Made by a program: the position numbers and the translations under genes
Shown: piece after piece, positions 1 to 34,736 of the stretch
Numbering within the stretch: the first letter of the stretch is position 1
Layout of the letters: the number at the start of each line of letters is the position of its first letter
The notes under the pieces: model-generated
Database searches by the model: none
What the model saw: only the letters and a program-made list of their open reading frames with translations
What the model was told of the DNA's origin: nothing
Virus record (IMG/VR): IMGVR_UViG_3300030095_001539
Span: 1-34,799 of that record
DNA from: a virus
Lineage: Duplodnaviria; Caudoviricetes
DNA length: 34,799 bases
Strand: one strand, 5' to 3'

Positions 1-3000
1 TAAAAACTTAGGTCTACCCTTTTCATTTATAGTACTAGCATCAAATCCTAATATTTTTGCTACTTCATTTTTACTTCTAACTGTAGATATTTCTTTTAAT
101 TCTTCTATTAATTTTTTAGAAAATAATAAATCAGGTCTTGTTTGGGTTTTTCTAGCTGACGTAGCGGTAGTTCTGTCAGTTTCCCCTCTATTAACTCTAC
201 TCTCTGGTAAAAAGTCTTTAAACATTTTCTTACCAAACGCTTCGGCTAGTTTACCTTTTCTATTGCTAACAGTAGATGGTTTTTCTTTTGTAAAGAAATC
301 TACAGTAGCATCTGCACCAGGGTTTAATATGTCATAAAGCATAACACCTTGAGCTTCGTTTTCTACAAAAGCTCTACCTGAGTCTCTATACTTTCTTATA
401 TCAGCTTGAGTTGTTAGACGTCTATTAGGTTTAGTAAACATTCTAGGTTTACCTTGCTTCATTAAACCTTTATCTAGCTCTATAAGATATTTTAAATCTA
501 AATCTCTTATGTTGTTATAATTTTCTCTTACGAAGGTTTTATAGTCTTGACCTTTTAATACATTGTCTTTAATCCAGTTCTTAAGTTCAGCTCCAGCTAA
601 TTGATCTACTCTTGTTCTATATTTAGGATCACTAACAGGTGGTAATTTACTTACTATAGGTTCTGATATTTCTTTAAATGATTTAACTTCTTCTTGAGTT
701 AAACCTTTTTCATTACCTCTTTTTATATTTCTTCTAAATGTAGACTTAGGTTGTTCTTTAACTTCTCTATCTACCTCAGCTATAATATCTGTTGAAGTAT
801 CTTCAATGTCAAATGTTTGACCTTCACTAGTAGGCTTATCTATACTACGAGCATCAGAATCTACTCTAGTAGCATAATCTTTTTTAACATCTAATAAAGC
901 TTTCTGAGCAATACCACCTAAACCTCTTTGATCTGCTTTACCATATAAATAACTAAACAAACTTCTTCTATTTCCATCTACTACAGGTTTAAAATTATTT
1001 AAAGCTCTAAGCTGTAAATTTTCTTTTATCTTTCTATTAACCTCTTCTTTAACCTCAGAGTCTAATCCTTGTAAATTATTATCTCTATTTATTAATTGAT
1101 TTATATAGTTGTTAAATTGAGAATTATTTTCTATGTTTTCAAAAGCGTCTATAGCTGCTTCACTGTTTTTAAAATCTTCATTAGTGACTAAGTCTTCTGT
1201 AATGTTTTGATCAAAAGAATTAGACATAGATCTAGTATCAACACTTATAGGTTTAGAAGCAACCATTTTAACAGGTTGTTTAGCAGGTTCTTTTATTGGT
1301 ACAACTCTAGTAGTTTTAGATGTAGAAAGAGTAGGTTGTTCTTTTATATTATCTTCTGCAAGAGATTTCAATTCTTCTTGAGCTAAAACTTCACCTTTAG
1401 TTCTTAGATCTTGATCAATGTTAACCTCTCCTTTTACAGCTCTTTTTTGAGCTTTAGTTACGTTACCTTCTTTTAAGTTGTCAGCATAATCATTTAATAC
1501 TTCTAATATATTGTTTTCGTTAATATCTAGTTTCATACCTAGATTTTGATAGAGTCTTCTAATTCCTCTCTTTAGCTGTCTAGAAACAGAGTTATTTGTA
1601 TCAAAAAGACCCCTTTCTCTTAACTGAGTATAGTAAGGCATAACCTCTTGCATCACTGCGTTACCATCATAGTTTTCGTCTTCTCTATATTTATCTAATT
1701 GCCTATCTAATACTGCTGCTGCTTTTGGATTTTGCTTTCGCATTTCGTTCATAACCTTATCAGCAAGCGCGTAAACTATATTTTTATTTTCTAATTTTGA
1801 AAAAGCAATGTCAGTAAATAAATGAGTCCCCTCGTGAATATCAACTCCTTCTGCTGCGTTTTGTGATAATAATATTACTCCTTTTGAAGGTATATAACTA
1901 CCTTCGTTTCTAAACTCTCCGTTTTCGTCTACTAATTGATCTACGTCTATACCATATTCATCTGCTATAGACTGAGCTTCTGCTGGTGAAAATACTCTTA
2001 CTGCAGTTTGCTTAGGATCAAAATCTATCTTATTAGCTTCTACTTGCTCTTGTACTTCTTCCTCTGTAAGATTTGGATTTTCATCTCTTATTACTTTTTC
2101 TATATCTTTATTATCTAGATTTACTTTTTCTTCTGTGCTTATCACAAGAGCTTCTTCTAGCGATGATACAGTCTTATCTTTATCTACTTTAGCGTTGTTA
2201 CTATCACCAGAAACATCAGCCATTTCGTTATTTATAGCTTCTATCTGTTTATCTATTCTACCAGTAGAACCTTTAGCTAAATTTTTCTTTTTATTTTCTA
2301 ATGCTTTTTTACGTTGAAGCAGAGCTGCTATTTGCATCTGAGCTCTACCATTCAAACCGTCGTCTATTTCATTATAAAGATTATAAGTTTCATTTGCGTC
2401 TTGAATTTTTTGTTTTTTATCAGCGTCACTAAGTGTATTATCAGAAGATATTTTACTTATTTCATTTTGCAAAGCATCTGCATCTCTAGCCGTATTAGCA
2501 TAAAACTCATATAGCTTATCTGTTTGCTGTCTTTCTTGAAATGTAGTATTTTTTTCGTAATCACTTAGTATAGCTTCGCTTGGGCTTGAAGCCATAGTAA
2601 AAGCAGTACCACCAGCGCCTGATAGAAAAGACACTTGCATCATATGGTTTAATTGCTTTTTAAATTCAGGACTGTCAAAATCTGGTATATCAAAATTTAT
2701 ATCATCACCAGTGGAGTTTTGAAACCATTCATCTATTTGTATAGCACTGTAAAACTGAGTAGTTTCTTCTATTGTTTCTAATAAACCTGCAGTTGTAAAT
2801 TTTTTACCACCTCTAATTACTTTAGCAGCACTATCACCTAAGTACTTATTAACAGCTATTTGAACTTCTCTAGCAGTTACATTACCATTAGTTAATTTTC
2901 TTAGTACATGATTAGTTATATTATTAACCATGTCTGTTGATTTTTTACCTGGTATTTTACCACTTAAAATCTTACCAGATAAATGAGACAAAGCACCTTC

Positions 3001-5733
3001 TACAGCTGCTTGAGTGTAAGCATATAGCATTTGTCTAGACTTTGGATATGACTCTTCGTATCTTTTCATAGCGTCTTTTCTGCTAACGCCATTTTCCATT
3101 AATTCTTTTACATACTCTTTTTGTCTGTTTTGATTTGCAACATTACTTTGAGACATGCTACTTAAAAAGAAACCAGCACCTAACCCACCTAGTGGAGCAC
3201 CCATAGCAGAGGCTGCCATTTGAGTAAATGCAACTATAGTTCCACCTACTAAGCTGTCTGCAAATTTTTGAGAATATTTTTCATCATTTCCTATACCTAC
3301 TAGCTTATCAACTATTGCTTTTTTAGTTGACTCCATAGTAGCTTCTTGTGATTTAAAAGTAGCTAAATTAGCGTTATATTCTCCTTCAGATATTAAACCC
3401 ATTGAATTACCCACGTTGTTTATTCCTCTAGCAAAATCACGCATTATATCATTAAAACCAGCTTGAGTATCTACAAATTGAGTAGCAAAAACATCGTATA
3501 CTTCTGTAAATGGATTACCAGAAAATTCTTGATTTTGTTTTCTAGCAACTCTGTCGTTATTTTTATATCTTAACACAGCTTTTAAACCTTCTAATGTTTC
3601 GTAGTTGTTTAAATATGATTCTATATTGAAAGATATTCTACCTGTCTCAACTTCTAAGTCTTTATTTTTCTGTATTAAAACATCTATTTGTTCTTTTTCT
3701 TTTTCATAAAGATCAGTATAGTCATCAATTAAACCGTTGACATTATCTAATCTTTTTTCTTCCTGCTTGTCTTCCCACTTTTGATACTTTTTTACTAAAG
3801 CGTCTGCATCATCTGGATTTTCAGTAACAGCTATTTTTAGTTCTTCTCTTTTAGATGTTACATTATCTACATAAGCCTTGTTTATATCTTCTATCTCGCT
3901 TTTAGTAGTTTCTAGCTTGTTAGTAACGTTTTTAGCAAGGCTTTCACTTTCTGCGTTATTTTCTTTATACTTATCTATAATCTCTTCTCCTCTTTTTTGC
4001 TCATCTTGTATTTTATTTACTAAGCCTTTTTCTTTATTCTCTATCTCTCTATTTTGTTGTTTAATTGCTTTATCACTTCCTTCATAATATCTTGGTAATG
4101 CTCCTTCTCCATCATATGTATATTCAGCGGCGTTGTCTTTAACAAACTTCATATAATTAGCTATGTCTTCAGGAGTTTCTTCACTTTGAAATATATTTAT
4201 ATCTTTTTTACCCAGTGTCAAACTTGAAGATAATCCTTCTCTCTGCATTGCTTTGTTGAAAGCGTTTCTTTGTTGCGATCCACTTTTTAAATAATCTTTT
4301 AAAGGCTCTAAACCGTTTGCTTCTAGAGTTGCATTATAATCTATATCTCCATTTTCTTCAAATACAGGGTTTTTATAAGTTATAACTTCTTTACCATCTA
4401 CTATAGTTCCTAAACCGTGGTTTAAATAATTATTATTTAATTTAGTTGCTATATCTCTAGGGTTTTCACTAGATAAAAACCTAGCTCCATCATAGACCAT
4501 TTTATCACTAAAAGGATTCCAAACTTGATGAAAATCATTTTCTCTACCTTTTATCTCAAACTCACCACTATCGTTGTCAAACTTGTAGTATTTAGTTCCA
4601 GAGTTTGGCAGTACATTTTGAATATTAGGGATTTCTTTTTCTTCTCCTATATTTTCTGTGTTTCTGTTTAAATAGTCTCTATTAGAAGCTCTTAAAGCGT
4701 TTTGATTAACTAGATTATCATATCTCCTTATCTCTTTCTCTTTTTCTTGCTGTAGCTTTTCTATTTCTTTTTCGTCTGTTGCATCTTTTATTTTACTATT
4801 TAAATCTTTTAATTTGCTTAAATGACCTTCTTCATCTATGTCTAATAAAGATAAATCTTGAGCTTGACTAGCAGTAACTTCAACACCAGGCAGTATGTTG
4901 TCTTTTTGAGTAATTACCCCAGCATCTTTATATATATAAGCATTTAGTTCTTTATCTTTGATAGCCACTGGTTTTCCTTCAAAAAGAATAGGATTACCAT
5001 CTGCATCTGCACCTGTTTGATATACTGGTATGTAAAAATTACCTTGATCTCTAAGAACACTTCCTTTTATAACTTCATCTTCTATTTTAAATACATCTTC
5101 GTCAACAAAATCTTTAGATGTTTTATCAAGCTTTTTTAATTTTACAAGATTTTTAGAAACATCTAATTCACCTTCGCCTTTTAAATCTTTTTCTTTAAAT
5201 AACGATATATCAATCTCACCTGTATTTTTATAGTGGTCATAAGCATCTTTTTCTGATCTAAGTTGGCCTCTAGATGGATTGTCGAACTCTGCTTTCTTTC
5301 GCTCTTCAAAAGCTGTATAGTCAAAAGGTTTTACTTGTTGCTGAGTGTTTTTGTCTATATCAAAAGTTACTTTAGCTTCTTTAAACTTCTCACCATCAAT
5401 ATCTATCTCTTCTAAAATATCTATTTCTTCACCTTTTGGTATGCCTACTTGATTTTTAGATGCAACATATTTTTTAGGTGGATCAGAAATTTCAGGTTTT
5501 TGTTTTAGCTGTTCAGTGTCTTCTTTTGGTAAAACCAAAGAAATATTTTCCTGCTTGGATTCCGTACTGTCCGTAGGACTTGCCACTACAGGTGCAGCAT
5601 CCGTTGCAGTGGCCTGAGGCTTTTCCACCTCTGTAGGTTTGTTGTCAATATCCCATTGTTTAACTAATTCTATAGTTTGTTCTTTAGTCTTACCTTGGTC
5701 TAGCATAGACTGAGCATACTCTTTTCTAGTCAT
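1..5733 (-). CDS. Giant virion cargo/ejection polyvalent protein (>1911 aa, 3' end truncated by window edge) with hydrophobic segment, HExxH zincin motif and sigma-region-2-like segment
   Basis: Absent from the ORF track because no stop is reached. ATG at 5733 gives MTRKEYAQSMLDQGKTKEQ. Every segment I translated is open in the same frame, including positions 1-60 (AKILGFDASTINEKGRPKFL). Gly/Ala hydrophobic stretch TIVAFTQMAASAMGAPLGGLGAGFFLSS at about 3150-3240; HEGTH at 1822-1836. Lies after tail and ejection genes, as in crAss-like phages. Confidence 0.85.
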   Translation of the reverse strand, partial: MTRKEYAQSMLDQGKTKEQTIELVKQWDIDNKPTEVEKPQATATDAAPVVASPTDSTESKQENISLVLPKEDTEQLKQKPEISDPPKKYVASKNQVGIPKGEEIDILEEIDIDGEKFKEAKVTFDIDKNTQQQVKPFDYTAFEERKKAEFDNPSRGQLRSEKDAYDHYKNTGEIDISLFKEKDLKGEGELDVSKNLVKLKKLDKTSKDFVDEDVFKIEDEVIKGSVLRDQGNFYIPVYQTGADADGNPILFEGKPVAIKDKELNAYIYKDAGVITQKDNILPGVEVTASQAQDLSLLDIDEEGHLSKLKDLNSKIKDATDEKEIEKLQQEKEKEIRRYDNLVNQNALRASNRDYLNRNTENIGEEKEIPNIQNVLPNSGTKYYKFDNDSGEFEIKGRENDFHQVWNPFSDKMVYDGARFLSSENPRDIATKLNNNYLNHGLGTIVDGKEVITYKNPVFEENGDIDYNATLEANGLEPLKDYLKSGSQQRNAFNKAMQREGLSSSLTLGKKDINIFQSEETPEDIANYMKFVKDNAAEYTYDGEGALPRYYEGSDKAIKQQNREIENKEKGLVNKIQDEQKRGEEIIDKYKENNAESESLAKNVTNKLETTKSEIEDINKAYVDNVTSKREELKIAVTENPDDADALVKKYQKWEDKQEEKRLDNVNGLIDDYTDLYEKEKEQIDVLIQKNKDLEVETGRISFNIESYLNNYETLEGLKAVLRYKNNDRVARKQNQEFSGNPFTEVYDVFATQFVDTQAGFNDIMRDFARGINNVGNSMGLISEGEYNANLATFKSQEATMESTKKAIVDKLVGIGNDEKYSQKFADSLVGGTIVAFTQMAASAMGAPLGGLGAGFFLSSMSQSNVANQNRQKEYVKELMENGVSRKDAMKRYEESYPKSRQMLYAYTQAAVEGALSHLSGKILSGKIPGKKSTDMVNNITNHVLRKLTNGNVTAREVQIAVNKYLGDSAAKVIRGGKKFTTAGLLETIEETTQFYSAIQIDEWFQNSTGDDINFDIPDFDSPEFKKQLNHMMQVSFLSGAGGTAFTMASSPSEAILSDYEKNTTFQERQQTDKLYEFYANTARDADALQNEISKISSDNTLSDADKKQKIQDANETYNLYNEIDDGLNGRAQMQIAALLQRKKALENKKKNLAKGSTGRIDKQIEAINNEMADVSGDSNNAKVDKDKTVSSLEEALVISTEEKVNLDNKDIEKVIRDENPNLTEEEVQEQVEANKIDFDPKQTAVRVFSPAEAQSIADEYGIDVDQLVDENGEFRNEGSYIPSKGVILLSQNAAEGVDIHEGTHLFTDIAFSKLENKNIVYALADKVMNEMRKQNPKAAAVLDRQLDKYREDENYDGNAVMQEVMPYYTQLRERGLFDTNNSVSRQLKRGIRRLYQNLGMKLDINENNILEVLNDYADNLKEGNVTKAQKRAVKGEVNIDQDLRTKGEVLAQEELKSLAEDNIKEQPTLSTSKTTRVVPIKEPAKQPVKMVASKPISVDTRSMSNSFDQNITEDLVTNEDFKNSEAAIDAFENIENNSQFNNYINQLINRDNNLQGLDSEVKEEVNRKIKENLQLRALNNFKPVVDGNRRSLFSYLYGKADQRGLGGIAQKALLDVKKDYATRVDSDARSIDKPTSEGQTFDIEDTSTDIIAEVDREVKEQPKSTFRRNIKRGNEKGLTQEEVKSFKEISEPIVSKLPPVSDPKYRTRVDQLAGAELKNWIKDNVLKGQDYKTFVRENYNNIRDLDLKYLIELDKGLMKQGKPRMFTKPNRRLTTQADIRKYRDSGRAFVENEAQGVMLYDILNPGADATVDFFTKEKPSTVSNRKGKLAEAFGKKMFKDFLPESRVNRGETDRTTATSARKTQTRPDLLFSKKLIEELKEISTVRSKNEVAKILGFDASTINEKGRPKFL
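5513..5626 (-). other. Candidate programmed -1 frameshift cassette (G_GAA_AAG, 6-nt spacer, 9-bp stem-loop) and 35-codon transframe tail
   Basis: GTG GAA AAG at 5628-5620; spacer CCTCAG; stem GCCACTGCA (5613-5605) pairs with TGTAGTGGC (5590-5582). The -1 frame reads ASGHCNGCCTCSGKSYGQYGIQAGKYFFGFTKRRH and stops at TGA 5515-5513. Confidence 0.55.
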
Positions 5734-22851: not shown

Positions 22852-25077
22852 TTATTTTTTTATTTTAGATAAACTTCCTTCGTTATTATATTTTTTTATA
22901 CCTAAATCAATACTTTTTTTAGTAATCATAGGCACAGGCGTATATTTGTTTTTATTACAAGCCATAATAGCTAAACCAGAGCTTATAGATGCATCGTGTT
23001 TAGTTCTATTATTTATATCAAAAACAGCCCAGTCTTCTAGTGTTTTTTGAAAATACATATCACCATATTCTTCATTAGAATATCCAATATGAGTTTCTAT
23101 ATAAGACTCAATAGCAGCTGCATGAGCTTGCTTAATGTCTTCACTTGAATTAGGTATTCCACCAATTTCTTTTTCTGTTGTAGATAATTTGTTCCAAATT
23201 TTGTCCGGTCTGTTTATTGAAAAAGCTCTATAACCTCTACGTTTAAAATAATACAATAATCTAGGTTTATTATTTTCAGCTAGTATTGGCATACCATAAA
23301 ATATACAAGCCATCAAAACGTCTTCAAAGAATATCTCAGCTGTTTGAGGCCTTGATATATACTCTAAAAAGAAATGGTTAGGTGGCGCATCTTCCATAGA
23401 AAACTTAGTTAATCCATGTAGTGATCCATTAGAGCCCTTACCATCAACAGTACCGCTAATGTCGTAACTATCACAGCCAAAAGCTCCAATATGTTCGTTA
23501 CCTGGATGTTTAATACCATTTTTTATTATAACTTTATTTTGTAATCCTATACTTGGTACCCAAGAAACCATGAACCTACCCTTATTATTAGGATAAAATA
23601 CAACTCTAGTATCTTTAACGCCATTTACCCATTGGAAATTACCTTTAGAAACTCTACTTGAGTTATTTATTTCTTCATTGTAATCTATTTGCTGGTATAT
23701 TTTAGTTAAATTAAATATAGACTGTTTTGACTCATCTCTAAAAGCGTGTTGTTCAGTTCTTGGAAACTGTCTATAATATTCATTTAAACTATCTTGATCA
23801 TTTTTTAATCCTTCAACTTCGTTCTCCCAGTGCTCAATAACGCCTGTTGTAATGTCGTAACCGTCAACTCCTTTGATTGGATTTTCTTCTCTAATGAAAA
23901 CAGGTAGTCCGTAAGAATCCATGAATCCTTCGTAGTTCCACTCCATAGGGACGAACAGAGAATAGAGTCCAGAAGAAGTTTGTCCGTTACGATTTCGTTT
24001 TGTAACGTCTGAATTATAGTATAACTTTTTGAAGTTGTTTCCACCTTTGTCTAAAGAATTTGAAGTTGAGCCCATCATACATTTACCTACGATTCTTGAT
24101 CCTAGTCTTAATGTAGTTTTTGTAACCCTCCAATTGTTTAATATATTGTCAGGTCTTTCCCACTTACCACTTTCATCATGAGCTAATAGTTTTAGCTTTT
24201 CACCATCGTAAGAGTTATCACCAGTATTTTTCCAGTCAATAGTTGTATCAAGCCCGTATAGCTCTTTTAGTTGTTCATTATTTTCAAGCTTTCTTCTAGT
24301 AAGTTTGGAAGCTGGAACCCTATACGCCAATTCTGTTTTAGGACGATCCATACCGTCCTGGATCGGTTTGAAGAAAAACGGATAGTTAACGGATATTGGT
24401 ACGACTTTGTCTGTGAACATTTTTTTAGCATCTGCTCCAGATTTAGATAATATACCGAATCTGGAATCACTGGAAATTGTCGCCTGGTTAACAAGCTCTG
24501 CTGAGGACATAAATGAAAATCCAGATCGTCTGTTTTTAAGATAGCACATCCCGTAACATCTGTTATCTGCTTTGCATGCTTCCCAAAATATAAAGAATAA
24601 TCTATTTGCTTCTCTAAAATCTGGTGCTCCGACATCGATTTTTGACCACTGCAAGTACATGTAATGAGTACCAGTAATATATACAGGACTGCCGTTATTG
24701 AAGAAATGAAAACCTTCTTCTCTACGCTTAAATTCTTCGTCGATATAGTCATACCATTTTTCTTTAAAATCATTGTCATATTCCTCCCAATCAAATCTAC
24801 TTTTAATTCTGTTTAGTTCTTTTGGGTATTCTGCTTTTTGCCAGTATTGCTCCGCTTTTTTTTCGCTTCGTTTATACGGTTTATTTGCTGCTGGTAAAGC
24901 AATCCTGAGATTCTGTATTTCAATGATTTGTCCAATTTGTCCAGTTTTACTTATTACTATAAAATCATAGTCGGAATTATAACCATATTCCCACTTTTTG
25001 AAACGATTTTGTTTCTTTAGTATTTTAGGATTAACAACATCTTTTAACTCTTTCCAGAGTGTTTGTTCATAGCTCAC
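22852..25077 (-). CDS. terL: Terminase large subunit
   Basis: 741 aa; Walker A-like KNRRSGFS, Walker B LLAHDESGKW, motif III MGST, nuclease GCDSYD and HDASISSG; GTG start overlaps the upstream TGA. Confidence 0.93.
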   Translation of the reverse strand: MSYEQTLWKELKDVVNPKILKKQNRFKKWEYGYNSDYDFIVISKTGQIGQIIEIQNLRIALPAANKPYKRSEKKAEQYWQKAEYPKELNRIKSRFDWEEYDNDFKEKWYDYIDEEFKRREEGFHFFNNGSPVYITGTHYMYLQWSKIDVGAPDFREANRLFFIFWEACKADNRCYGMCYLKNRRSGFSFMSSAELVNQATISSDSRFGILSKSGADAKKMFTDKVVPISVNYPFFFKPIQDGMDRPKTELAYRVPASKLTRRKLENNEQLKELYGLDTTIDWKNTGDNSYDGEKLKLLAHDESGKWERPDNILNNWRVTKTTLRLGSRIVGKCMMGSTSNSLDKGGNNFKKLYYNSDVTKRNRNGQTSSGLYSLFVPMEWNYEGFMDSYGLPVFIREENPIKGVDGYDITTGVIEHWENEVEGLKNDQDSLNEYYRQFPRTEQHAFRDESKQSIFNLTKIYQQIDYNEEINNSSRVSKGNFQWVNGVKDTRVVFYPNNKGRFMVSWVPSIGLQNKVIIKNGIKHPGNEHIGAFGCDSYDISGTVDGKGSNGSLHGLTKFSMEDAPPNHFFLEYISRPQTAEIFFEDVLMACIFYGMPILAENNKPRLLYYFKRRGYRAFSINRPDKIWNKLSTTEKEIGGIPNSSEDIKQAHAAAIESYIETHIGYSNEEYGDMYFQKTLEDWAVFDINNRTKHDASISSGLAIMACNKNKYTPVPMITKKSIDLGIKKYNNEGSLSKIKK
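23805..24044 (-). CDS. Candidate overprinted ORF 2 in terL +1 frame (79 aa)
   Basis: Stop-free for 79 codons; terL codons here are unusually C-ending (TAC, GAC, AAC, ATC, TTC, GGC). Confidence 0.35.
   Translation of the reverse strand: METTSKSYTIIQTLQNEIVTDKLLLDSILCSSLWSGTTKDSWILTDYLFSLEKKIQSKELTVTTLQQALLSTGRTKLKD
24267..24794 (-). CDS. Candidate overprinted ORF 1 in terL +1 frame (up to 175 aa) with signal-peptide/TM-like segment
   Basis: 175 stop-free codons against 8 stops in the next ~74 codons of the same frame; segment KKVFISSITAVLYILLVLITCTCSGQ. Confidence 0.45.
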   Translation of the reverse strand: MIGRNMTMILKKNGMTISTKNLSVEKKVFISSITAVLYILLVLITCTCSGQKSMSEHQILEKQIDYSLYFGKHAKQITDVTGCAILKTDDLDFHLCPQQSLLTRRQFPVIPDSVYYLNLEQMLKKCSQTKSYQYPLTIRFSSNRSRTVWIVLKQNWRIGFQLPNLLEESLKIMNN

Positions 25078-25349
25078 TTGCTTCTCCCTTCTGCAAATCC
25101 TTTAAAAGTTTTTTGTTCTTTAACTTCTTTAGGCTTTTCATTTAAAATATCTTCTTCTATTTGTATTCTAGTTAATATTTCAAAAGCATCAAATATAGCT
25201 AACTTTTTAGTTGCAGCAGCATTTTTTAATCTGTCAGCGCTTACATCATCGTCTGAGTCAACAATCTTTTCTTTTGCTACTTTAATAAGTTCCTCAACTG
25301 CTTTTTGCCCAGCTTGGATTATTTTCTTTTTCGTCTCCTTGATATTCAT
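25074..25349 (-). CDS. Putative terminase small subunit
   Basis: 91 aa helical protein (ADRLKNAAATKKLAIFDAFEIL...FKGFAEGRSK), translationally coupled to terL. Confidence 0.55.
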   Translation of the reverse strand: MNIKETKKKIIQAGQKAVEELIKVAKEKIVDSDDDVSADRLKNAAATKKLAIFDAFEILTRIQIEEDILNEKPKEVKEQKTFKGFAEGRSK

Positions 25350-25887
25350 GAGTTAAAGCTATATCATTTGATTTCATACAATAAAGTCGTTCACCATTTA
25401 TAATAAACTCAAATTCAGAGTTTGGTGTAAACGTAATAAGTGTCCCAGGTGTTACTCCTGCAGCTTCTAAGGACTTATTAGTGTATTTTACTATACCAAC
25501 ATTAGGCTGCTCTTTTCTATTCTCTAAAATGCTTTTATTTTTTAAAGGCTTGACAAAACAATAGTTTAAATGAGATTTTAAATTATACATATATATTTGT
25601 TCTGGAGAACAGAAATATAAGTTATCTCTAAAGTATGTACTACTATTCTTTTCTACACCTTTCATATTGTAATATCTACGTAAGATATTATGATGAATAT
25701 ATACTTCATCACCAGGTTTTATTTTTGTTTTATAAGCAGCTGGAGTCGAAACTACAACTGCTTTTTTACTTACAAAAATATGATTTTCTATATTGGAATT
25801 AATTACTAATTCTTTACCATCAACCAGCTTAACGTTTTCATATGTTTTATCTAGTGGTTTAATGATAAAATGGTATATACTATTCAT
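25294..25887 (-). CDS. Tandem GroES-like (co-chaperonin fold) protein
   Basis: Two GroES-like units: FIIKP...AVVVSTP...IKPGDEVYIHH and CFVKP...GIVKY...VTPGTLITF...EFIINGERLYCMKSNDI. Confidence 0.6.
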   Translation of the reverse strand: MNSIYHFIIKPLDKTYENVKLVDGKELVINSNIENHIFVSKKAVVVSTPAAYKTKIKPGDEVYIHHNILRRYYNMKGVEKNSSTYFRDNLYFCSPEQIYMYNLKSHLNYCFVKPLKNKSILENRKEQPNVGIVKYTNKSLEAAGVTPGTLITFTPNSEFEFIINGERLYCMKSNDIALTHEYQGDEKENNPSWAKSS

Positions 25888-26652: not shown

Positions 26653-27099
26653 TTATTTATTTATTTTTGTTATTTTTTCAGCACCACGACTTCCGAAGTA
26701 TGCTACATAAACTGTTACCAGTAATGTTTTCAAAAGTCCTATCCAAGCTTCATCAACATCGAATTGTAAATGAAAAGAATCTACAGCCATCATAAACACT
26801 GCAGATGCTGTTAGGAACACCAAAGCTAAAGGTCTAGTGTTTTTAGACAGCCATGAATCACTTTTCATATCTGCTCTCCATCTACTAGATACTTCTTTCA
26901 TTTCAGCTATATCTTGCTCTATAAGCTTCATAGCCTGCTCTTTATCTATTGCCTTAATCTTATTATCACTTGATATAAGATTTTTTACCACGCCAAGTGT
27001 TCCTTGATTAGGTAGCACATCTCCAAGAGCTTGCAATACCTTAGGAGCTTTGCTTGAAAGAAAAGCACCTATTTTAGTTTCGTTGAATGATTTTTTCAT
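26653..27099 (-). CDS. Holin, 3TM / gene-transfer-agent holin-like family
   Basis: RWRADMKSDSWLSKNTRPLALVFL, two C-terminal hydrophobic helices and the YFGSRGAEK end motif. Confidence 0.7.
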   Translation of the reverse strand: MKKSFNETKIGAFLSSKAPKVLQALGDVLPNQGTLGVVKNLISSDNKIKAIDKEQAMKLIEQDIAEMKEVSSRWRADMKSDSWLSKNTRPLALVFLTASAVFMMAVDSFHLQFDVDEAWIGLLKTLLVTVYVAYFGSRGAEKITKINK

Positions 27100-28005
27100 T
27101 TAACAAGATCTTTTAGTGCATGAAGTTGAAAACTTTGTAGAAAATTGAGGCTTTCTATTTTTCTTTTTGTATTTTGTTGTTTTAACTTTCTTAGGCTTAT
27201 ATGTTGTGTTTTTCTTTTCTTTCTTTTTTTCAACTACTTTTGTTTCTTTCTTAACAGGTGTTATCTCAGTTCTAAGCTTTGGCTCTGAAGATGTAGTTAT
27301 TTTAGCTTTTCTAGTTGGTATTTGTTCTTCAACTTTAACGTCTTTCTTTTTATATGCTTTAGCAGCTTTAGTAAAACCTTCTAATGTAGGGTATTTGCTT
27401 TTATCTGCTTTTTTATAAGCATCCTCATATCTAACACTACCTTTTGAACCAGGTGAACCACCTTGTTTAGTGGTTGTAGTAGTAAGACGTTTCATACCTG
27501 TCTCAGGATTAACATCTGTTTTAGTAGTTTTAGTTACTTTTTCTTTATCACCTTCTCCAGGAGCTGATGCGCCATGCATTGACACACCTATTAAACCTCT
27601 TTCGGCCATGTGTTTAAAAGGTTTATTATTGCCTCTATATCCTTTTAATTTGAATTTTGTTGATCCCATTTCTGTTTGTTTTTTCCTTGATTGTTTACTA
27701 GCCTTGTAAGCTTCTTTCTCCCAAGGTAACTGTTCGTTGTGTTCGTTTAGATTTTCTCTAGGATAAGTTTTACCTTTCCAGTAGAAGTTTTGTTGGTCAT
27801 AATCTAAGTCACCATTAGCTTGTTGCTTTTGATGAACTTTTTCATGAGCTATTACATTTTGCTCTTCTTCTGGACTAATACCACTTTGCACTATTATACC
27901 AGTATGGTTTGATTTACCTATAGATCCGTCTGTTAAATCTTTTTTATAAACAGCTATGTTCATATTAGACTCATCGTATGGTGATCCTTTTAGCTTAAAA
28001 CCCAT
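27100..28005 (-). CDS. HExxH zincin-like metallopeptidase domain plus Lys/Thr-rich disordered tail
   Basis: VIAHEKVHQKQ followed by LPWEKEAY (likely third ligand); very basic C-terminal half. Confidence 0.65.
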   Translation of the reverse strand: MGFKLKGSPYDESNMNIAVYKKDLTDGSIGKSNHTGIIVQSGISPEEEQNVIAHEKVHQKQQANGDLDYDQQNFYWKGKTYPRENLNEHNEQLPWEKEAYKASKQSRKKQTEMGSTKFKLKGYRGNNKPFKHMAERGLIGVSMHGASAPGEGDKEKVTKTTKTDVNPETGMKRLTTTTTKQGGSPGSKGSVRYEDAYKKADKSKYPTLEGFTKAAKAYKKKDVKVEEQIPTRKAKITTSSEPKLRTEITPVKKETKVVEKKKEKKNTTYKPKKVKTTKYKKKNRKPQFSTKFSTSCTKRSC

Positions 28006-28220
28006 TATTTGTTTTTATTCTTTTTATCTGCTTTTATTTGCTTGTCAGTTAAAGGAACGTCAGCATCTGTAGAAGGTCTTAATTTTATAGTGCCATTGTC
28101 ACAATAAAACTCTCTTCTTTCTCTAGCAGCTTCTTCTTTACCACCTGGTTTCTTAGCATAGCCTGCTTCCCAAGCTTTCCAAGCTTTTCCACATTTACCT
28201 TTACTACCTCTATTTCTCAT
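28005..28220 (-). CDS. Small basic hypothetical protein
   Basis: 71 aa, Lys/Arg-rich, coupled to neighbours. Confidence 0.6.
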   Translation of the reverse strand: MRNRGSKGKCGKAWKAWEAGYAKKPGGKEEAARERREFYCDNGTIKLRPSTDADVPLTDKQIKADKKNKNK

Positions 28221-28221
28221 A

Positions 28222-28641
28222 TTATTTTTTCTTTTTCATAGAAGCACCTTGTGTAAATCTTGCGCTTTTATTTTTTATAGCTTCTTTCTTTTGTTCTGGA
28301 CTCATTTTCTTGTGAGTTCTACCTTGAGAAACTAACTTATCTGCTCTTTTAGATCTTAGTGAAGCACCATCAGAAGCTAGTATTTTCTTTTGCAAAGCTT
28401 CTGGTAAATTCTTTTGTTTACCTTTTAATGGAACTGAAGCTCCATCATTTTTCTTAGTTTTACAACCAAAGTTATTAGCATAGTTAGCCATTTTGACTAC
28501 AGCCGGAGAATACTTTTTAGTTTTAGATCTCATAATTTTACTAGCAGCTTTACAAGTGTCCATACCACCCATATTCTTTTCTACCCATTTAGTAAACTTA
28601 CCTTCGTTCTTTTCTTTTATTTCTGGAAATTTCTTAGCCAT
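28222..28641 (-). CDS. Small basic modular protein with three GAS motifs
   Basis: 139 aa; NDGAS, SDGAS and TQGAS separate short Lys-rich modules. Confidence 0.7.
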   Translation of the reverse strand: MAKKFPEIKEKNEGKFTKWVEKNMGGMDTCKAASKIMRSKTKKYSPAVVKMANYANNFGCKTKKNDGASVPLKGKQKNLPEALQKKILASDGASLRSKRADKLVSQGRTHKKMSPEQKKEAIKNKSARFTQGASMKKKK

Positions 28642-28646
28642 TTCGT

Positions 28647-28799
28647 TTATTTTTTATTCATGTTGTAAGGAAAATTTTTATTAAACCATTGCTTACGATC
28701 ATCGCAACCGCAACCACCTGGTATCATATCTGCAACTTTTTTTATACCTGTTGCCTTTGTAAACTTTTCTATGCTATCGCCTAAACCTCTTGATTTCAT
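28647..28799 (-). CDS. Small CGC-motif phage protein (50 aa; below ORF-track cutoff)
   Basis: MKSRGLGDSIEKFTKATGIKKVADMIPGGCGCDDRKQWFNKNFPYNMNKK; fills the gap exactly. Confidence 0.75.
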   Translation of the reverse strand: MKSRGLGDSIEKFTKATGIKKVADMIPGGCGCDDRKQWFNKNFPYNMNKK

Positions 28800-28809
28800 A
28801 ATATTTTAT

Positions 28810-29466
28810 TTAACAGTTCCACCTTCTTCTAGCTGCTAATCCTCTTTCGCCTTTCCAGCTTTTTGATCTAGCACAAAATGATTTTCTACGCTTAGCATCT
28901 TTACTACCTGGTTTTAGCTTTGATGGATCTTTTGTAACAGCTGTTTTTAATTTACTACCTGGATTATTACGCTTATATTCATTAACACCTTTTTGTGTCA
29001 TACCACCACCAGCTTTACCTCCTGTACCCGTAGGATTAGCTTTGTTAAAATTTTTGCCTTTACCTATTGTTCTTTTAGGATCAGCTGCACTAGGACCACC
29101 TACTTTTACGCAGTTGTTAACCATCCTATTGCCTTTTTTCTTCATACCTTTTTTAATAAAACCATCCCAACAAGGAGTTGATTTTTTTGAAGGTCCATCT
29201 TTTCTTTTTGTTTTTTTAGAACTACCACCACAAGGTCCACCTGTAGCTACATTAATCCAGTTCTCTTTTTCAAACCAGTCTCTTAGCGTAGCTCCTTTTT
29301 TACGAGCACCTTTTACATTAGAAGAACTTGATCTCTTGTATTTGCCTTTAGAAGCTGCAGATCTTTTAGCATTGACAACTTTATCTCTTTCAGCTTGACT
29401 CATTGATCTTACCTTGGAAGCAGGTAGGCATACTTTACTAGTTCCGCCTCCTTTAACTTTTCCCAC
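28810..29466 (-). CDS. Basic multi-module protein (C-terminal RRKSFCAR...RRRWNC module); start uncertain (GTG 29466 or 29508)
   Basis: Modules VCLP..MSQAER, LRDWFEKENW..PCG, PCWDG..VNNCVK and NPGSKLKTAVT..RRKSFCAR..WNC. Confidence 0.7.
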   Translation of the reverse strand: MGKVKGGGTSKVCLPASKVRSMSQAERDKVVNAKRSAASKGKYKRSSSSNVKGARKKGATLRDWFEKENWINVATGGPCGGSSKKTKRKDGPSKKSTPCWDGFIKKGMKKKGNRMVNNCVKVGGPSAADPKRTIGKGKNFNKANPTGTGGKAGGGMTQKGVNEYKRNNPGSKLKTAVTKDPSKLKPGSKDAKRRKSFCARSKSWKGERGLAARRRWNC

Positions 29467-29611
29467 GGTTTCTTTTTTTAGATCCGCCACCGTAGTTACC
29501 TGGTCCACCAGCTTTAGTACATCTCACACCCCAGCCAGAAGCATAAGCACTTGGCCATACTTTAAATTTCTTTTTTGCTGCGGCTTTACAAGCTGGACTA
29601 ATTTTTCCCAT
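29453..29611 (-). CDS. Small basic protein with KFKVWPSAYAS motif (52 aa; below ORF-track cutoff)
   Basis: MGKISPACKAAAKKKFKVWPSAYASGWGVRCTKAGGPGNYGGGSKKRNRGKS; ATG overlaps the upstream TAA. Confidence 0.75.
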   Translation of the reverse strand: MGKISPACKAAAKKKFKVWPSAYASGWGVRCTKAGGPGNYGGGSKKRNRGKS

Positions 29612-30006
29612 TATCTACGTTTTTTACTTACTTGAACTTCTTTAACTATCACAGTTGGTTTTCTTTTGTGTAAGTCTTCTAATTTCTTTTGAAGCTCTTG
29701 TAACTTACCATCACTTTCTGTACCATCTTTAACTAAACCAGACAACACATCTATTTCTTCAAATATAACATCGTCAACTTGTTCTAACATATTAACTCTT
29801 TCTAACATGTCTTCAATGTTCTCGTGGTTCCACTTTTCTTTTAGATCATACTCTAGTCTACCAACTTCTACTGGTGGTAAACCTTTAGCTGCTTCTATAT
29901 CTTCTTGTAAAGTATAATACATACCAACTAGTGTTGTTGTTAGCATTATTATCCCAATTACAGTTTTTATATCAATTTTAAACTCAGTGTTTTCAGATAT
30001 TTTCAT
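29611..30006 (-). CDS. Single-TM coiled-coil membrane protein (lysis-associated, i-spanin/holin-like)
   Basis: Likely start MKISENTEF at 30006; TM TVIGIIMLTTTLVGMYY followed by a coiled-coil; directly after the endolysin. Confidence 0.55.
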   Translation of the reverse strand: MKISENTEFKIDIKTVIGIIMLTTTLVGMYYTLQEDIEAAKGLPPVEVGRLEYDLKEKWNHENIEDMLERVNMLEQVDDVIFEEIDVLSGLVKDGTESDGKLQELQKKLEDLHKRKPTVIVKEVQVSKKRR

Positions 30007-30406
30007 ATTCTTTCGTCGCGTCAAATGATGGGCATGCTTTATTAGCAAACTCATTATGTGAATAAATAATAGCGTCTGGATACATTGCTTTTAATGTTTT
30101 AAGCACATGTAACAGACTTTCTTTTTGAACCTCTGTTCTTGTATCTTTTGGTGTCTTACCGTCAGCTTCTACGCCTCCGCAATAACATAATCCTATAGAA
30201 TTACGATTGTGCCCTTTACAATGAGCGCCTGTTTTATCTATATCTCTACCTTTTTTGATAGTGCCGTCTAGTTCTATATAGAAATGGTAACCTATGTCCG
30301 TCCAGCCTCTACCTTCAGTATGCCACTTTTTTATTGTTTCAACTGGTATTTCTTGACCTTCTCTAGTAGCAGAGCAGTGTATTATAATTTCTTTTATACT
30401 TCTCAT
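29993..30406 (-). CDS. Endolysin, N-acetylmuramoyl-L-alanine amidase (Amidase_2, T7 lysozyme-like)
   Basis: IIIHCSAT, GWTDIGYHF, GAHCKGHNRNSIGLCYCGG, HNEFANKACPSF; likely start MRSIKE at 30406. Confidence 0.92.
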   Translation of the reverse strand: MRSIKEIIIHCSATREGQEIPVETIKKWHTEGRGWTDIGYHFYIELDGTIKKGRDIDKTGAHCKGHNRNSIGLCYCGGVEADGKTPKDTRTEVQKESLLHVLKTLKAMYPDAIIYSHNEFANKACPSFDATKEYENI

Positions 30407-32500: not shown

Positions 32501-32935
32501 TTATCTTGTTTTGTCTTTGTTAACGTAATCTATTGATTTAGTAATTACTTTATAACTATATCTATTACTTTTTTCTAATTTAGTTGTAGGCATATCTTCT
32601 TCGCCTAACATAATACGGTACATGCGACTTATCAGCTGTTTGCACTTGAAGGAAACTTTATATATATGATATTTTTGAGTTGTGCGGTTTCTTTTTCTCC
32701 ACACTGTGATCCACCCTTGTTTCAATAATCTGTTCCAGCGCCTGTTATCCCAGCTGAATGAGTACGTACCTTTTATAAAATCATCTTTAGTAAACATATC
32801 TATAGCATCGAGATATATCAATAGTTCTAAATCTGCATCATTTAAGTCATTAGTTTTACAAGCCCACTTTCTAATTATTCTGTAATGTTTAAGTAAACCT
32901 AGTTCTTTTAAATCACTAGAAGTTAACTTTCTCAT
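32501..32935 (-). CDS. Putative winged-helix DNA-binding protein
   Basis: 144 aa; DLNDADLELLIYL..FTKDDF..RWNRLLKQGWITVW..IYKVSFKCKQLI has MarR/wHTH-like spacing. Confidence 0.5.
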   Translation of the reverse strand: MRKLTSSDLKELGLLKHYRIIRKWACKTNDLNDADLELLIYLDAIDMFTKDDFIKGTYSFSWDNRRWNRLLKQGWITVWRKRNRTTQKYHIYKVSFKCKQLISRMYRIMLGEEDMPTTKLEKSNRYSYKVITKSIDYVNKDKTR

Positions 32936-33192
32936 AGTATAATAACTACATCAAACTCTTTAATAACTTTATATTCTTCTTTATTTATTTCAATATTAAA
33001 TCCAGATGATTTATCGTAATAAATTTCATCACCTTTTTTTAATACAGATACTTCAGAGCCAGGTTCTATAACCTTAGCTCTTCTATATCTAACATCTTCT
33101 CTTTGCTTTTCAGCTAGAATTAATCCACCCTTTGTTTGAACATCAACTTCTTTGATTGGTTCAATTACTATAAACTTACCTACTGCTTTCAT
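32932..33192 (-). CDS. groES: Co-chaperonin GroES
   Basis: 86 aa; MKAVGKFIVIEP, mobile loop TKGGLIL, LKKGDEIYY, YKVIKEFDV. Confidence 0.88.
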   Translation of the reverse strand: MKAVGKFIVIEPIKEVDVQTKGGLILAEKQREDVRYRRAKVIEPGSEVSVLKKGDEIYYDKSSGFNIEINKEEYKVIKEFDVVIIL

Positions 33193-34736
33193 GCTCTTAT
33201 ATTATTAATTACACAATCAGTTGATAATATAGTAGTAGCTACTGAAGCTGCGTTAAGTAATGCACTCTTAGTAACTAGTAAAGGATCTATAATTCCGGCT
33301 TTTACCATATCAACCGTTTTTCCTGTAACCACATTTAATCCTAAACCTTTTACTTCTGGAGTTTCATAATTTTCTACACCAGCATTTTTTAATATCAATT
33401 TAAAAGGCTCTTTGATAGCACAATAAAGTACTTCTTCGCCCATTGACTTAGGTTCTAAATGTTGTGCAGCATTTAATAAAGCTATACCACCACCTGGCAC
33501 TATACCTTCCTTAATCGCAGCTTTTGTAGCACAAATAGCATCTTCTACTCTATCTCTCTTCTCTTTTAATTCTATTTCTGAGTTTGCCCCAACTTTAACC
33601 GTAGCTACTTTAGCTTTTAGTTTAGCTAGTCTTCTTTCTAGTCTAACTATAATATTAGGGTTTTTAGTTTCTTTTATGTTCTTATCTAATAAAGCAATAG
33701 TTTCTTTAACTTCTTTATTCTCTGTTAAATCAACTTTTAATATTGTATCTTCGTGGTTTGTTATAGATTTAATACATGATCCTAAATGCTCAGGTTGTAT
33801 AATATCCATATCATCTCCTAAGTCTTCATTAATAAGTGTAGCACCAGTCACAGCACATAGATCTGATAATACATCTTTTTTGCTGATTCCGTATACTGGT
33901 GCATCTATGATGTTAACTTTTATATTGCCTTTAGATTTATTCATGGCCAGCGCGGAAACCACTTGTGGGTCAACATCAGCAATGATAAGTAAGCTCTTAC
34001 CATTTTTAATAACATGTTCAAGGACTGACTGTATTTTTCTAACATTAGGTATAACTGATTCAACTATAAGAACTAATGGATTATCTAGTTCAGCTGTGCC
34101 TTTTTCTTTATTAGTAATAAAATGGTTGTTTTTTAATGCTTGATCATATTGAACACCTTCTATTAATTCTACTACAGTCTCAGGTTGTTCGTTTGTTTCC
34201 ATCATAACAACTCCTGTTTCATCTACTAACTTAAACGCTTCTCCTATAACTTTACCTAACTCTATATCATTGTTAGCCGATATAGTAGCTACTTGGTCTA
34301 TTTTTTTACCTGTTACTTTTTTACTATTTTTATTTAAATAGTTTAATACTTTTTTAACAGCACTATCAATACCTTCTTTCATTATTCTACTATCTTCTAG
34401 TAAATTGTGAGCTTGTGCTTGATCTAGTATTGCTTTTGCTAAAACAGTTGCTGTAGTTGTTCCATCACCTGCATCTGATACTGTTCGTTGAGCTGCTTGT
34501 TTAATAAGTGTCGCTCCAATGTTTTCTATAGAATCTTGTAGCGTAATTGAATTAGCCACTGTTACTCCATCTTTTGTTATTTGTGGCATACCATTAGCAT
34601 CTTCTAATATAACACATTTACCACTTGCTCCTAACGTTGACCCTACCGCATTAGTAAGTTTTTCAACGCCAGTTAATATCTGACTTCTAGCTGTATCGCC
34701 AAAAGCCAGATTTTTAACTAACTTTATTTCTTGCAT
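33189..34736 (-). CDS. groEL: Chaperonin GroEL (phage-encoded)
   Basis: 515 aa; ITKDGVTVA, DAGDGTTTATVLA, TISANND, DRVEDAICATKAA, GIVPGGG, GIIDP; lacks the GGM tail. Confidence 0.96.
   Translation of the reverse strand: MQEIKLVKNLAFGDTARSQILTGVEKLTNAVGSTLGASGKCVILEDANGMPQITKDGVTVANSITLQDSIENIGATLIKQAAQRTVSDAGDGTTTATVLAKAILDQAQAHNLLEDSRIMKEGIDSAVKKVLNYLNKNSKKVTGKKIDQVATISANNDIELGKVIGEAFKLVDETGVVMMETNEQPETVVELIEGVQYDQALKNNHFITNKEKGTAELDNPLVLIVESVIPNVRKIQSVLEHVIKNGKSLLIIADVDPQVVSALAMNKSKGNIKVNIIDAPVYGISKKDVLSDLCAVTGATLINEDLGDDMDIIQPEHLGSCIKSITNHEDTILKVDLTENKEVKETIALLDKNIKETKNPNIIVRLERRLAKLKAKVATVKVGANSEIELKEKRDRVEDAICATKAAIKEGIVPGGGIALLNAAQHLEPKSMGEEVLYCAIKEPFKLILKNAGVENYETPEVKGLGLNVVTGKTVDMVKAGIIDPLLVTKSALLNAASVATTILSTDCVINNIRA

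Follow-up and report, generated by a model that had tools for sequence, protein, structure and literature searches.

Destabilising the outer membrane at lysis is the job of the spanins. In superinfection exclusion by phage T5 the lipoprotein Llp blocks the receptor from the periplasmic side. Llp is listed as a phage lipoprotein exclusion factor in PMC9409062. The embedded o-spanin of lambda, Rz1, is described in PMC6139136 as the product of a lipoprotein gene nested out of frame in Rz, and the same paper gives the lipobox consensus as [LVI][ASTVI][GAS]C and counts 91 of 677 phages of Gram-negative hosts without a recognisable spanin. Unimolecular spanins (u-spanins) are represented by T1 gp11 and have been annotated in the flavophages Ingeline and Nekkels (PMC8776804).

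The DNA analysed here, called the window throughout, is a 34.8-kb phage fragment of 32.5% G+C whose minus strand carries GroEL, amidase, holin, GroES-like, terL, portal and structural genes. A second gene lies in the +1 frame of terL; it is a nested phage gene in an unexpected host gene, predicted to encode a lipoprotein, and its function is one that we infer. The features needed for the discussion are given below.

22852..25077, minus strand: terL, terminase large subunit and host gene, 741 aa; phrog_6681, E 2e-166
24267..24752, minus strand: overprinted +1 gene, likely extent from ATG 24752 to TAA, 161 aa; overlaps terL codons 109-270
24657..24752, minus strand: predicted signal peptide with basic n-region, hydrophobic core and Cys32
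24651..24659, minus strand: Cys32-Thr-Cys34, candidate lipidation site; Cys34 requires terL Leu142 to be TTG or CTG
24270..24650, minus strand: tail, hydrophilic, mildly basic and predicted disordered; variable in length, 104-183 aa in carriers
23892..24011, minus strand: second constrained stretch, candidate overprinted peptide or nucleotide element; terL codons about 356-395
26653..27099, minus strand: holin; phrog_3427, E 6e-20
29611..30006, minus strand: membrane anchor plus coiled-coil gene of i-spanin topology, directly after the amidase; candidate partner
29993..30406, minus strand: amidase endolysin, same strand and upstream of terL; phrog_822, E 4e-59

TerL contains KNRRSGFS and LLAHDES, which we take to be Walker A- and B-like motifs. 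A PDB sequence search with TerL gave no match, and in a fold search with a low-confidence TerL model terminases ranked first, non-significantly, for the presumed ATPase region that hosts the second gene (codons 109-270). The closest cultured relatives of this terL belong to Elemovirus, Pachyviridae and Pervagoviridae flavophages (31-46% identity), most of which share the GroES-terL-portal order of the window. The host group is taken to be flavobacterial because of these relatives and because contigs of this kind were found in Flavobacteriaceae bins. Unlike the window, the five cultured flavophages tested and the uncultured record MW202828.1 have +1 stops scattered in the region.

Like Rz1, the +1 gene is nested out of frame, is predicted to encode a lipoprotein with a flexible unstructured body, is missed by gene callers and lies in a presumed late lysis context. 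Unlike Rz1, it is nested in a terminase gene and not in an i-spanin gene, its product is about three times longer and has no penta-proline region, the closest i-spanin-like gene is ~4.9 kb away and does not co-occur with it, and it has been repeatedly lost. A search for a proline-rich fusion region in the +1 protein found none (5 Pro in 130 mature residues). In the records compared, neither embedding in or adjacency to an i-spanin gene nor regular co-occurrence with a cognate i-spanin, the marks of a two-component o-spanin, was seen. The +1 protein has a predicted N-terminal lipoprotein signal, as u-spanins do, and genes of u-spanin topology adjoin the endolysin in relatives without the hidden gene. 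It differs from the u-spanins in having no sequence similarity to them and no C-terminal membrane segment; the C-terminal hydropathy is 0.4 in the window and at most 0.4 in the carriers listed. Position, partner and C-terminal anchor set the +1 gene apart from both spanin classes, yet it may work in a similar way. With T5 Llp and other exclusion lipoproteins it would share being a small, accessory phage lipoprotein. Genes of the Llp type are free-standing, whereas this one is overprinted, encodes a product predicted to be disordered and sits in the packaging operon. No report of a gene overprinted on a terminase came up in searches of an open-licence library.

The open frame and its distribution among terL genes

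The minus-strand ORF at 24267-24794 (175 aa from TTG) sits in the +1 frame of terL, and the frame is open from 24812, giving an uninterrupted run of 181 codons. A first-pass annotation, made from the letters of the window, had described a frame open for 175 codons with one stop in the surrounding interval and many stops beyond it. This description was confirmed: a single stop (24815) lies between TAA 24953 and TAA 24269, and eight +1 stops follow in terL codons 295-342. Codon shuffling, which had been named as a check, was run as three nulls, and in none of them did any of the draws reach 181 codons, the longest runs being 136 for resampling of genome codons, 139 for synonymous permutation and 148 for codon permutation (5000 draws each). 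In the other 21 genes examined in the window the longest such run was at most 58 codons. It had also been noticed that Ile, Leu and Val codons here avoid NTA before purines, and the count bears this out: none of 12 such codons before a purine inside the ORF ends in A, vs 7 of 11 before a pyrimidine in the ORF and 28 of 55 downstream. Two alternative hairpins at 24340-24365 had been put forward as a further constraint. The two 6-bp stems are legible; their z scores are -1.4 on the mRNA strand, which is non-significant, and -2.1 on the other, the letters vary among the 13 homologues compared, and the claim was dropped.

Homologues were collected by four viral-contig scans (with the window, two non-carriers and one distant carrier as queries), a genome-contig scan and six annotated records. 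After removal of 34 duplicates, 30 partial loci, 6 with N and 5 without a match, the 355 loci gave 281 distinct terL genes including that of the window. The number of +1 stops in codons 113-249 is bimodal: 162 genes have none (carriers), 10 have one or two and 109 have 3-11. Because the homologues were picked as best matches and not at random, the proportion of carriers among them does not measure prevalence. The openness of the frame across homologues, also proposed beforehand as a check, is thus observed in 162 of 281 genes. The two halves of codons 113-249 agree on open or closed in 273 of the 281. A null based on the codon use of each gene expects 5.5 stops per gene and only 0.11 stop-free genes among the 162 carriers (0.01 among 114 non-carriers). 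In the first 80 genes NTA occurs before a purine in 0 of 472 cases in the overlap, a zero that follows from the definition of carriers, and before a pyrimidine in 336 of 538, so there is no general avoidance of NTA; outside the overlap it is found in 57% of cases before purines and 63% before pyrimidines. Three genes (L036, L236 and L338) have a single +1 stop each, at codons 225, 230 and 114, and may be shortened versions or recent losses. Two further candidates were rejected. A second long +1 ORF near the end of terL was traced to 16 zero-stop cases on contigs that end there prematurely, and a programmed frameshift does not fit database proteins that are TerL/+1 hybrids, which are read as assembly indels because their frame switches at scattered places.

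Where did the gene come from? All of the database matches to the +1 protein that were tested, 120 of the 120 listed out of 159 and 133 of 133 in another set, are +1 translations of gene-lacking terL, and no free-standing homologue was found among them. A FastTree tree of 265 genes has one clade of 199, of which 149 are carriers and 50 are not; the sister clade has 3 carriers and 58 non-carriers, and there are no carriers among the distant outgroups on which the root rests. Carrier state changes 25 times on this tree and 17 times on a tree of the overlap region (17-29 over three trees), vs about 85 for shuffled labels. One gain followed by many losses is the simplest reading of these trees, with recombination as the alternative. 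Judging from the outgroups, in which the frame is closed, the terL frame is older and wider than the +1 gene. Between a non-carrier and its nearest carrier (23 rows), 44-67% of synonymous sites differ in the overlap and 24-41% elsewhere, vs 31% and 30% for carrier pairs; the excess divergence of non-carriers in the overlap is consistent with codon reversion after loss.

Selection on the product and its predicted route to the envelope

Each +1 codon has as its second letter a third codon letter of terL. At these positions T is gained in carriers over codons 130-139 and lost over the tail. The +1 product has the KK, the hydrophobic core FISSITAVLYILLVLI and the TCTCSG-Q that the first-pass annotation had read in it. 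Hydropathy of the core in the 162 carriers is 2.27 vs 1.09 in a synonymous null, and a core of at least 2.0 is present in 151 of 152 carriers. The tail has a hydropathy of -0.51 vs 0.35 in the null and is more hydrophilic than the null in 162 of 162 carriers, vs 61 of 114 non-carriers. In 11 independent pairs, chosen on a tree of the C-terminal half of terL, the hydrophilic tail goes in the same direction in 10.6 with none against (p 0.001), and the presence of Cys142 or Cys126 in 8.1 with none against (p 0.008). The end of the ORF varies from codon 250 to 329 across carriers. Synonymous change in the tail is not reduced in 84 close carrier pairs (0.27-0.35 vs about 0.25), and a structure model of the +1 protein is confident for the N-terminal helix only, residues 3-52. 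On these three grounds the tail is kept in composition and not in sequence. A family search with the +1 protein found no PHROG or Pfam match and Atlas matches of at most 0.78.

Across the sequences compared, selection acts on the alternative product, beyond the avoidance of stops. The open frame, the specific avoidance of stops, the selected core, cysteine and hydrophilic tail, the repeated loss and the lack of a free-standing homologue among matches leave us close to certain that the overprinted gene is real. The locus is an unusually clean natural experiment in gene birth and a rare instance of overprinting on an essential gene. A new, probably exported protein occupies third codon positions of a packaging motor that is conserved and indispensable, and among hundreds of relatives the gene is variously kept, given a shifted signal or another length, or lost with reversion of the codons. 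Selection on bulk properties (anchor, cysteine and hydrophilic tail) suffices to hold an overprinted gene, and standard annotation misses such a gene.

Starts in Bacteroidetes use no Shine-Dalgarno sequence and favour A at -3, -6, -12 and -13, according to PMC6847099. ATG 24752 has A at -13, -12 and -6. In a rough start matrix it scores 1.0, ATG 24779 and 24773 score -3.5, and TTG 24794 scores 1.2. An ATG at the position of 24752 is present in 60% of carriers and 19% of non-carriers, a difference that is non-significant in independent pairs (4.0 to 0.3, p 0.125). All 162 carriers have a start codon after the last upstream stop, vs 86 of 104 non-carriers, and in lineages with a stop at codon 112 this holds for 31 of 31 carriers vs 35 of 52. 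ATG 24752, giving 161 aa, is more likely the start than the alternative TTG 24794 on such evidence. An internal promoter TAGATTTG at 24792-24799 was considered and rejected; the 58 occurrences of the motif are about what chance would give (53), and its letters are not kept in most relatives. Metatranscriptome contigs span the stretch, being assembled from mixed relatives and blind to frame, strand and start.

The lipobox calls made here use a heuristic of our own. The main-clade lipobox is non-canonical, L-I-T-C or T-C-T-C with Thr at -1, the window included. Cys140 is forced by Met-Tyr of TerL and is also found in 97 of 104 non-carriers. Cys142, the Cys34 of the window, depends on the codon for Leu142, which is TTG or CTG (+1 Cys) in 122 of 135 main-clade carriers; other Leu codons before a pyrimidine in the overlap have this form in 55 of 275. 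With TTA at Leu142 the +1 residue would be Tyr, and no stop would arise. A clade of 27 carriers has a shifted, earlier signal that ends at Cys126 (GSC or GLC; mostly I/T-G-S-C, a canonical lipobox, e.g. IGSC). Cys140/142 is absent in 22 of these, and TerL itself has changed to YWFMCN in 26 of the 27. Two signal registers that both end in Cys are an argument for lipidation. Candidate periplasmic cysteines for disulfide links are Cys69, in 94% of carriers and 69% of non-carriers, and Cys112, in 100% and 98%.

Readings other than an exported lipoprotein can be judged against these data. A reading without any protein, in which the open frame comes from a local rise in G+C, from RNA structure, from chance or as a by-product of frameshifting, would fit the higher third-position G+C of the overlap in the window (0.31 vs 0.22) and the database proteins in which TerL and +1 sequence are fused. 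NTA is, however, avoided only where a stop would arise, T goes up in the core and down in the tail, synonymous change is unreduced, unlike that expected for RNA structure, and the hybrids change frame at scattered places, as assembly indels do; we regard this reading as very improbable. An uncleaved single-pass inner-membrane protein, acting in lysis timing like an antiholin or as a tether for the packaging machinery, is quite unlikely. It would suit the n-region of ~20 residues, the near-universal hydrophobic core and the non-canonical lipobox of the main clade, but leaves the selected codon for Cys142 and the separate canonical GSC register unexplained. The first-pass annotation had proposed a hidden gene for an exported protein or a lipoprotein, for example a spanin or exclusion factor, and had noted that Bacteroidota proteins cleaved by signal peptidase I (SPI) often start with Gln. 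The exported or membrane-anchored gene is strongly supported by the open frame and by selection on its product, and the Gln reading did not hold up family-wide. At least in the window's subclade, a cut after Gly36 would release into the periplasm a soluble protein with pyroglutamate as its first residue, in line with the Bacteroidetes Q-rule, which covers about 71% of SPI substrates (PMC5837995). Gln145 (Gln37 of the window) is kept in 22 of 23 members of that subclade, although TCA makes up only 161 of 639 Ser codons elsewhere, while Cys142 is kept in 12 of 23 (Cys34 is lost in 11), so the SPI/Gln reading is tenable there. Among the 112 other main-clade carriers the residue at this site is Pro in 60, Leu in 19, Val in 18, Gln in only 11 and Ala in 4. 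At the cleavage-site position Gln is about as frequent in carriers (55 of 162) as in non-carriers (32 of 104), independent pairs show no link between Gln and the open frame (2.6 to 2.1, p 1), Tyr stands at -3 in 7 of 23 subclade members, and Gln is the cheapest hydrophilic residue at that site. SPI cleavage is therefore judged unlikely; the lipoprotein reading suits the family better because Gln is confined to the window's subclade and is not tied to the open frame.

Possible roles in lysis and exclusion

Internal initiation at ATG 24752 on a late transcript would yield the +1 lipoprotein, which would pass through Sec, be lipidated at Cys32 or Cys34 and then be sorted to the outer membrane. 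These steps taken jointly are fairly probable. At lysis the endolysin would first remove the cell wall, and the anchored, flexible, basic tail would then reach the inner membrane or a partner and destabilise the outer membrane. How could such a tail be written into an ATPase? It fits in the third codon positions because it needs composition and not a fold. The reading that we put forward, to which we give slightly less than an even chance, is an overprinted terL +1 lipoprotein of a marine flavobacterial-type phage clade that acts late as an outer-membrane lysis helper. Should this role be right, the gene bears on how spanin-less phages of Gram-negative hosts open the outer membrane.

The endolysin neighbourhood has a bearing on this role. 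Genes of u-spanin topology (a lipoprotein with a C-terminal membrane segment) were found in 8 non-carriers and 1 carrier, L070, which has both this gene and the hidden one. Among loci with a visible endolysin, such a gene lies at most 1.5 kb from the endolysin in 0 of 40 carriers vs 6 of 29 non-carriers (p 0.004 with kinship ignored). The pattern is made up of 4 of 5 close and 2 of 24 distant non-carriers and represents at least 2 separate losses. In G001, the fifth close non-carrier, a gene for a disordered lipoprotein directly adjoins one of i-spanin type, and no spanin-like gene lies beside the visible endolysin in 21 of the 24 distant non-carriers. Same-strand stand-alone lipoproteins in large contigs occur in 4 of 16 non-carriers (12 of 16 are without) and in 2 of 16 carriers. 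The endolysin-neighbour pattern thus favours a role in lysis, but a strict exchange of one gene for the other is refuted. The rule that a phage has the hidden gene or a stand-alone lipoprotein and never both was rejected, as L070 has both and most non-carriers have neither. When gene content was clustered for the region upstream of terL and for 32 large contigs, no family emerged as a general replacement of the hidden gene, and the differences follow the deep split. Of the records compared, many of which are incomplete, 11 of 23 from carriers and 7 of 21 from non-carriers have the i-spanin-like family, which does not track the hidden gene. Its best lysis match is just E 0.01, in one relative, and a modelled pairing of its protein with the mature +1 product scored 0.00, a value that weighs neither for nor against a partnership.

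The same lipoprotein could instead serve superinfection exclusion, blocking a receptor or entry from the periplasmic side or shielding progeny from receptors on debris, much as T5 Llp. Its lipoprotein anatomy, with a selected cysteine and two signal registers, would suit this role, and repeated loss (the changes seen over three trees) suits an accessory, host-dependent function. Against this, a free-changing sequence with an end that moves from codon 250 to 329 suits specific receptor binding poorly, the position in a late packaging operon suggests late expression, and the u-spanin/endolysin pattern is not predicted. Exclusion is rather unlikely. The lysis-helper reading can also be extended to a two-layer terL, in which a de novo lipoprotein needs neither a C-terminal anchor nor a cognate i-spanin to disrupt the outer membrane, as a new spanin substitute exchangeable with u-spanins, its lipobox having settled twice via TerL residue changes, and a second short peptide at codons about 345-410 outliving the first. 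This extended form is rather unlikely to hold in all its parts.

A second constrained stretch and neighbouring genes

The second stretch sits in a +1 ORF at 23805-24044 (minus strand, 79 aa), in which GTG is the only start in the window. Synonymous change at codons 360-399 is 0.16 in carrier pairs vs 0.28-0.31 in non-carrier pairs. Of 152 carriers, 143 are free of +1 stops in codons 343-400, where 23 would be expected to be so. The same holds for 41 of 49 close non-carriers against an expectation of 7.7, and for 19 of 59 distant ones against 15.4; these counts rest on about one stop-capable site per gene. The stretch does not track the first ORF in independent pairs and is kept after the main gene is lost. 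RNA structure was rejected here, since none of 9 pairs changed on both sides and z ranged from -0.9 to +1.3. The stretch is a clade-wide constraint, and a small overprinted peptide and a nucleotide element are about equally likely as its cause.

Several neighbouring genes were noted in the course of the analysis. Five genes of u-spanin topology lie right after an endolysin and are unannotated (L139:2124-2612, L141:1204-1683, L205:2680-3147, L221:395-829 and L285:6018-6497); four of them match phrog_5885, whose function is listed as unknown. The anchor plus coiled-coil gene (29611-30006 in the window; elsewhere for example L383:7440-9317 and L407:9636-11527) forms in many relatives a cassette with an exported thioredoxin-fold protein (PF00085) and also with an exported protein of ~390 aa without a family match. 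It is present in 18 of 54 records and in 0 of the 8 searched records with a u-spanin-topology gene, which are mostly short. Two non-carriers have stand-alone lipoproteins with a Tyr/Trp-rich middle and a disordered tail that are mutually dissimilar (L359:10204-10638 and L426:19328-19942, minus strand), and for the disordered stand-alone lipoproteins found in G001 and G050:C10 the set contains no homologue.

In the window itself, a 91-aa gene at 25074-25349 (minus strand) before terL has a weak likeness to the N-terminal extension of Elemovirus TerL (E 0.018) and may reflect a fusion or a small terminase. There are two GroES-like genes and a full GroEL (25294-25887, 32932-33192 and 33189-34736, minus strand), the second GroES-like gene being recognised by position and motif only. 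Small, strongly basic, Lys/Gly-rich genes fill 27100-29611 (minus strand) from amidase to holin, and their order is shuffled in relatives. An ORF of at least 1911 aa at 1-5733 (minus strand) runs off the end of the window. In four members of a distant non-carrier group (L094, L095, L098 and L099) the antisense strand of the central part of terL has a frame without stops for 172-235 codons.
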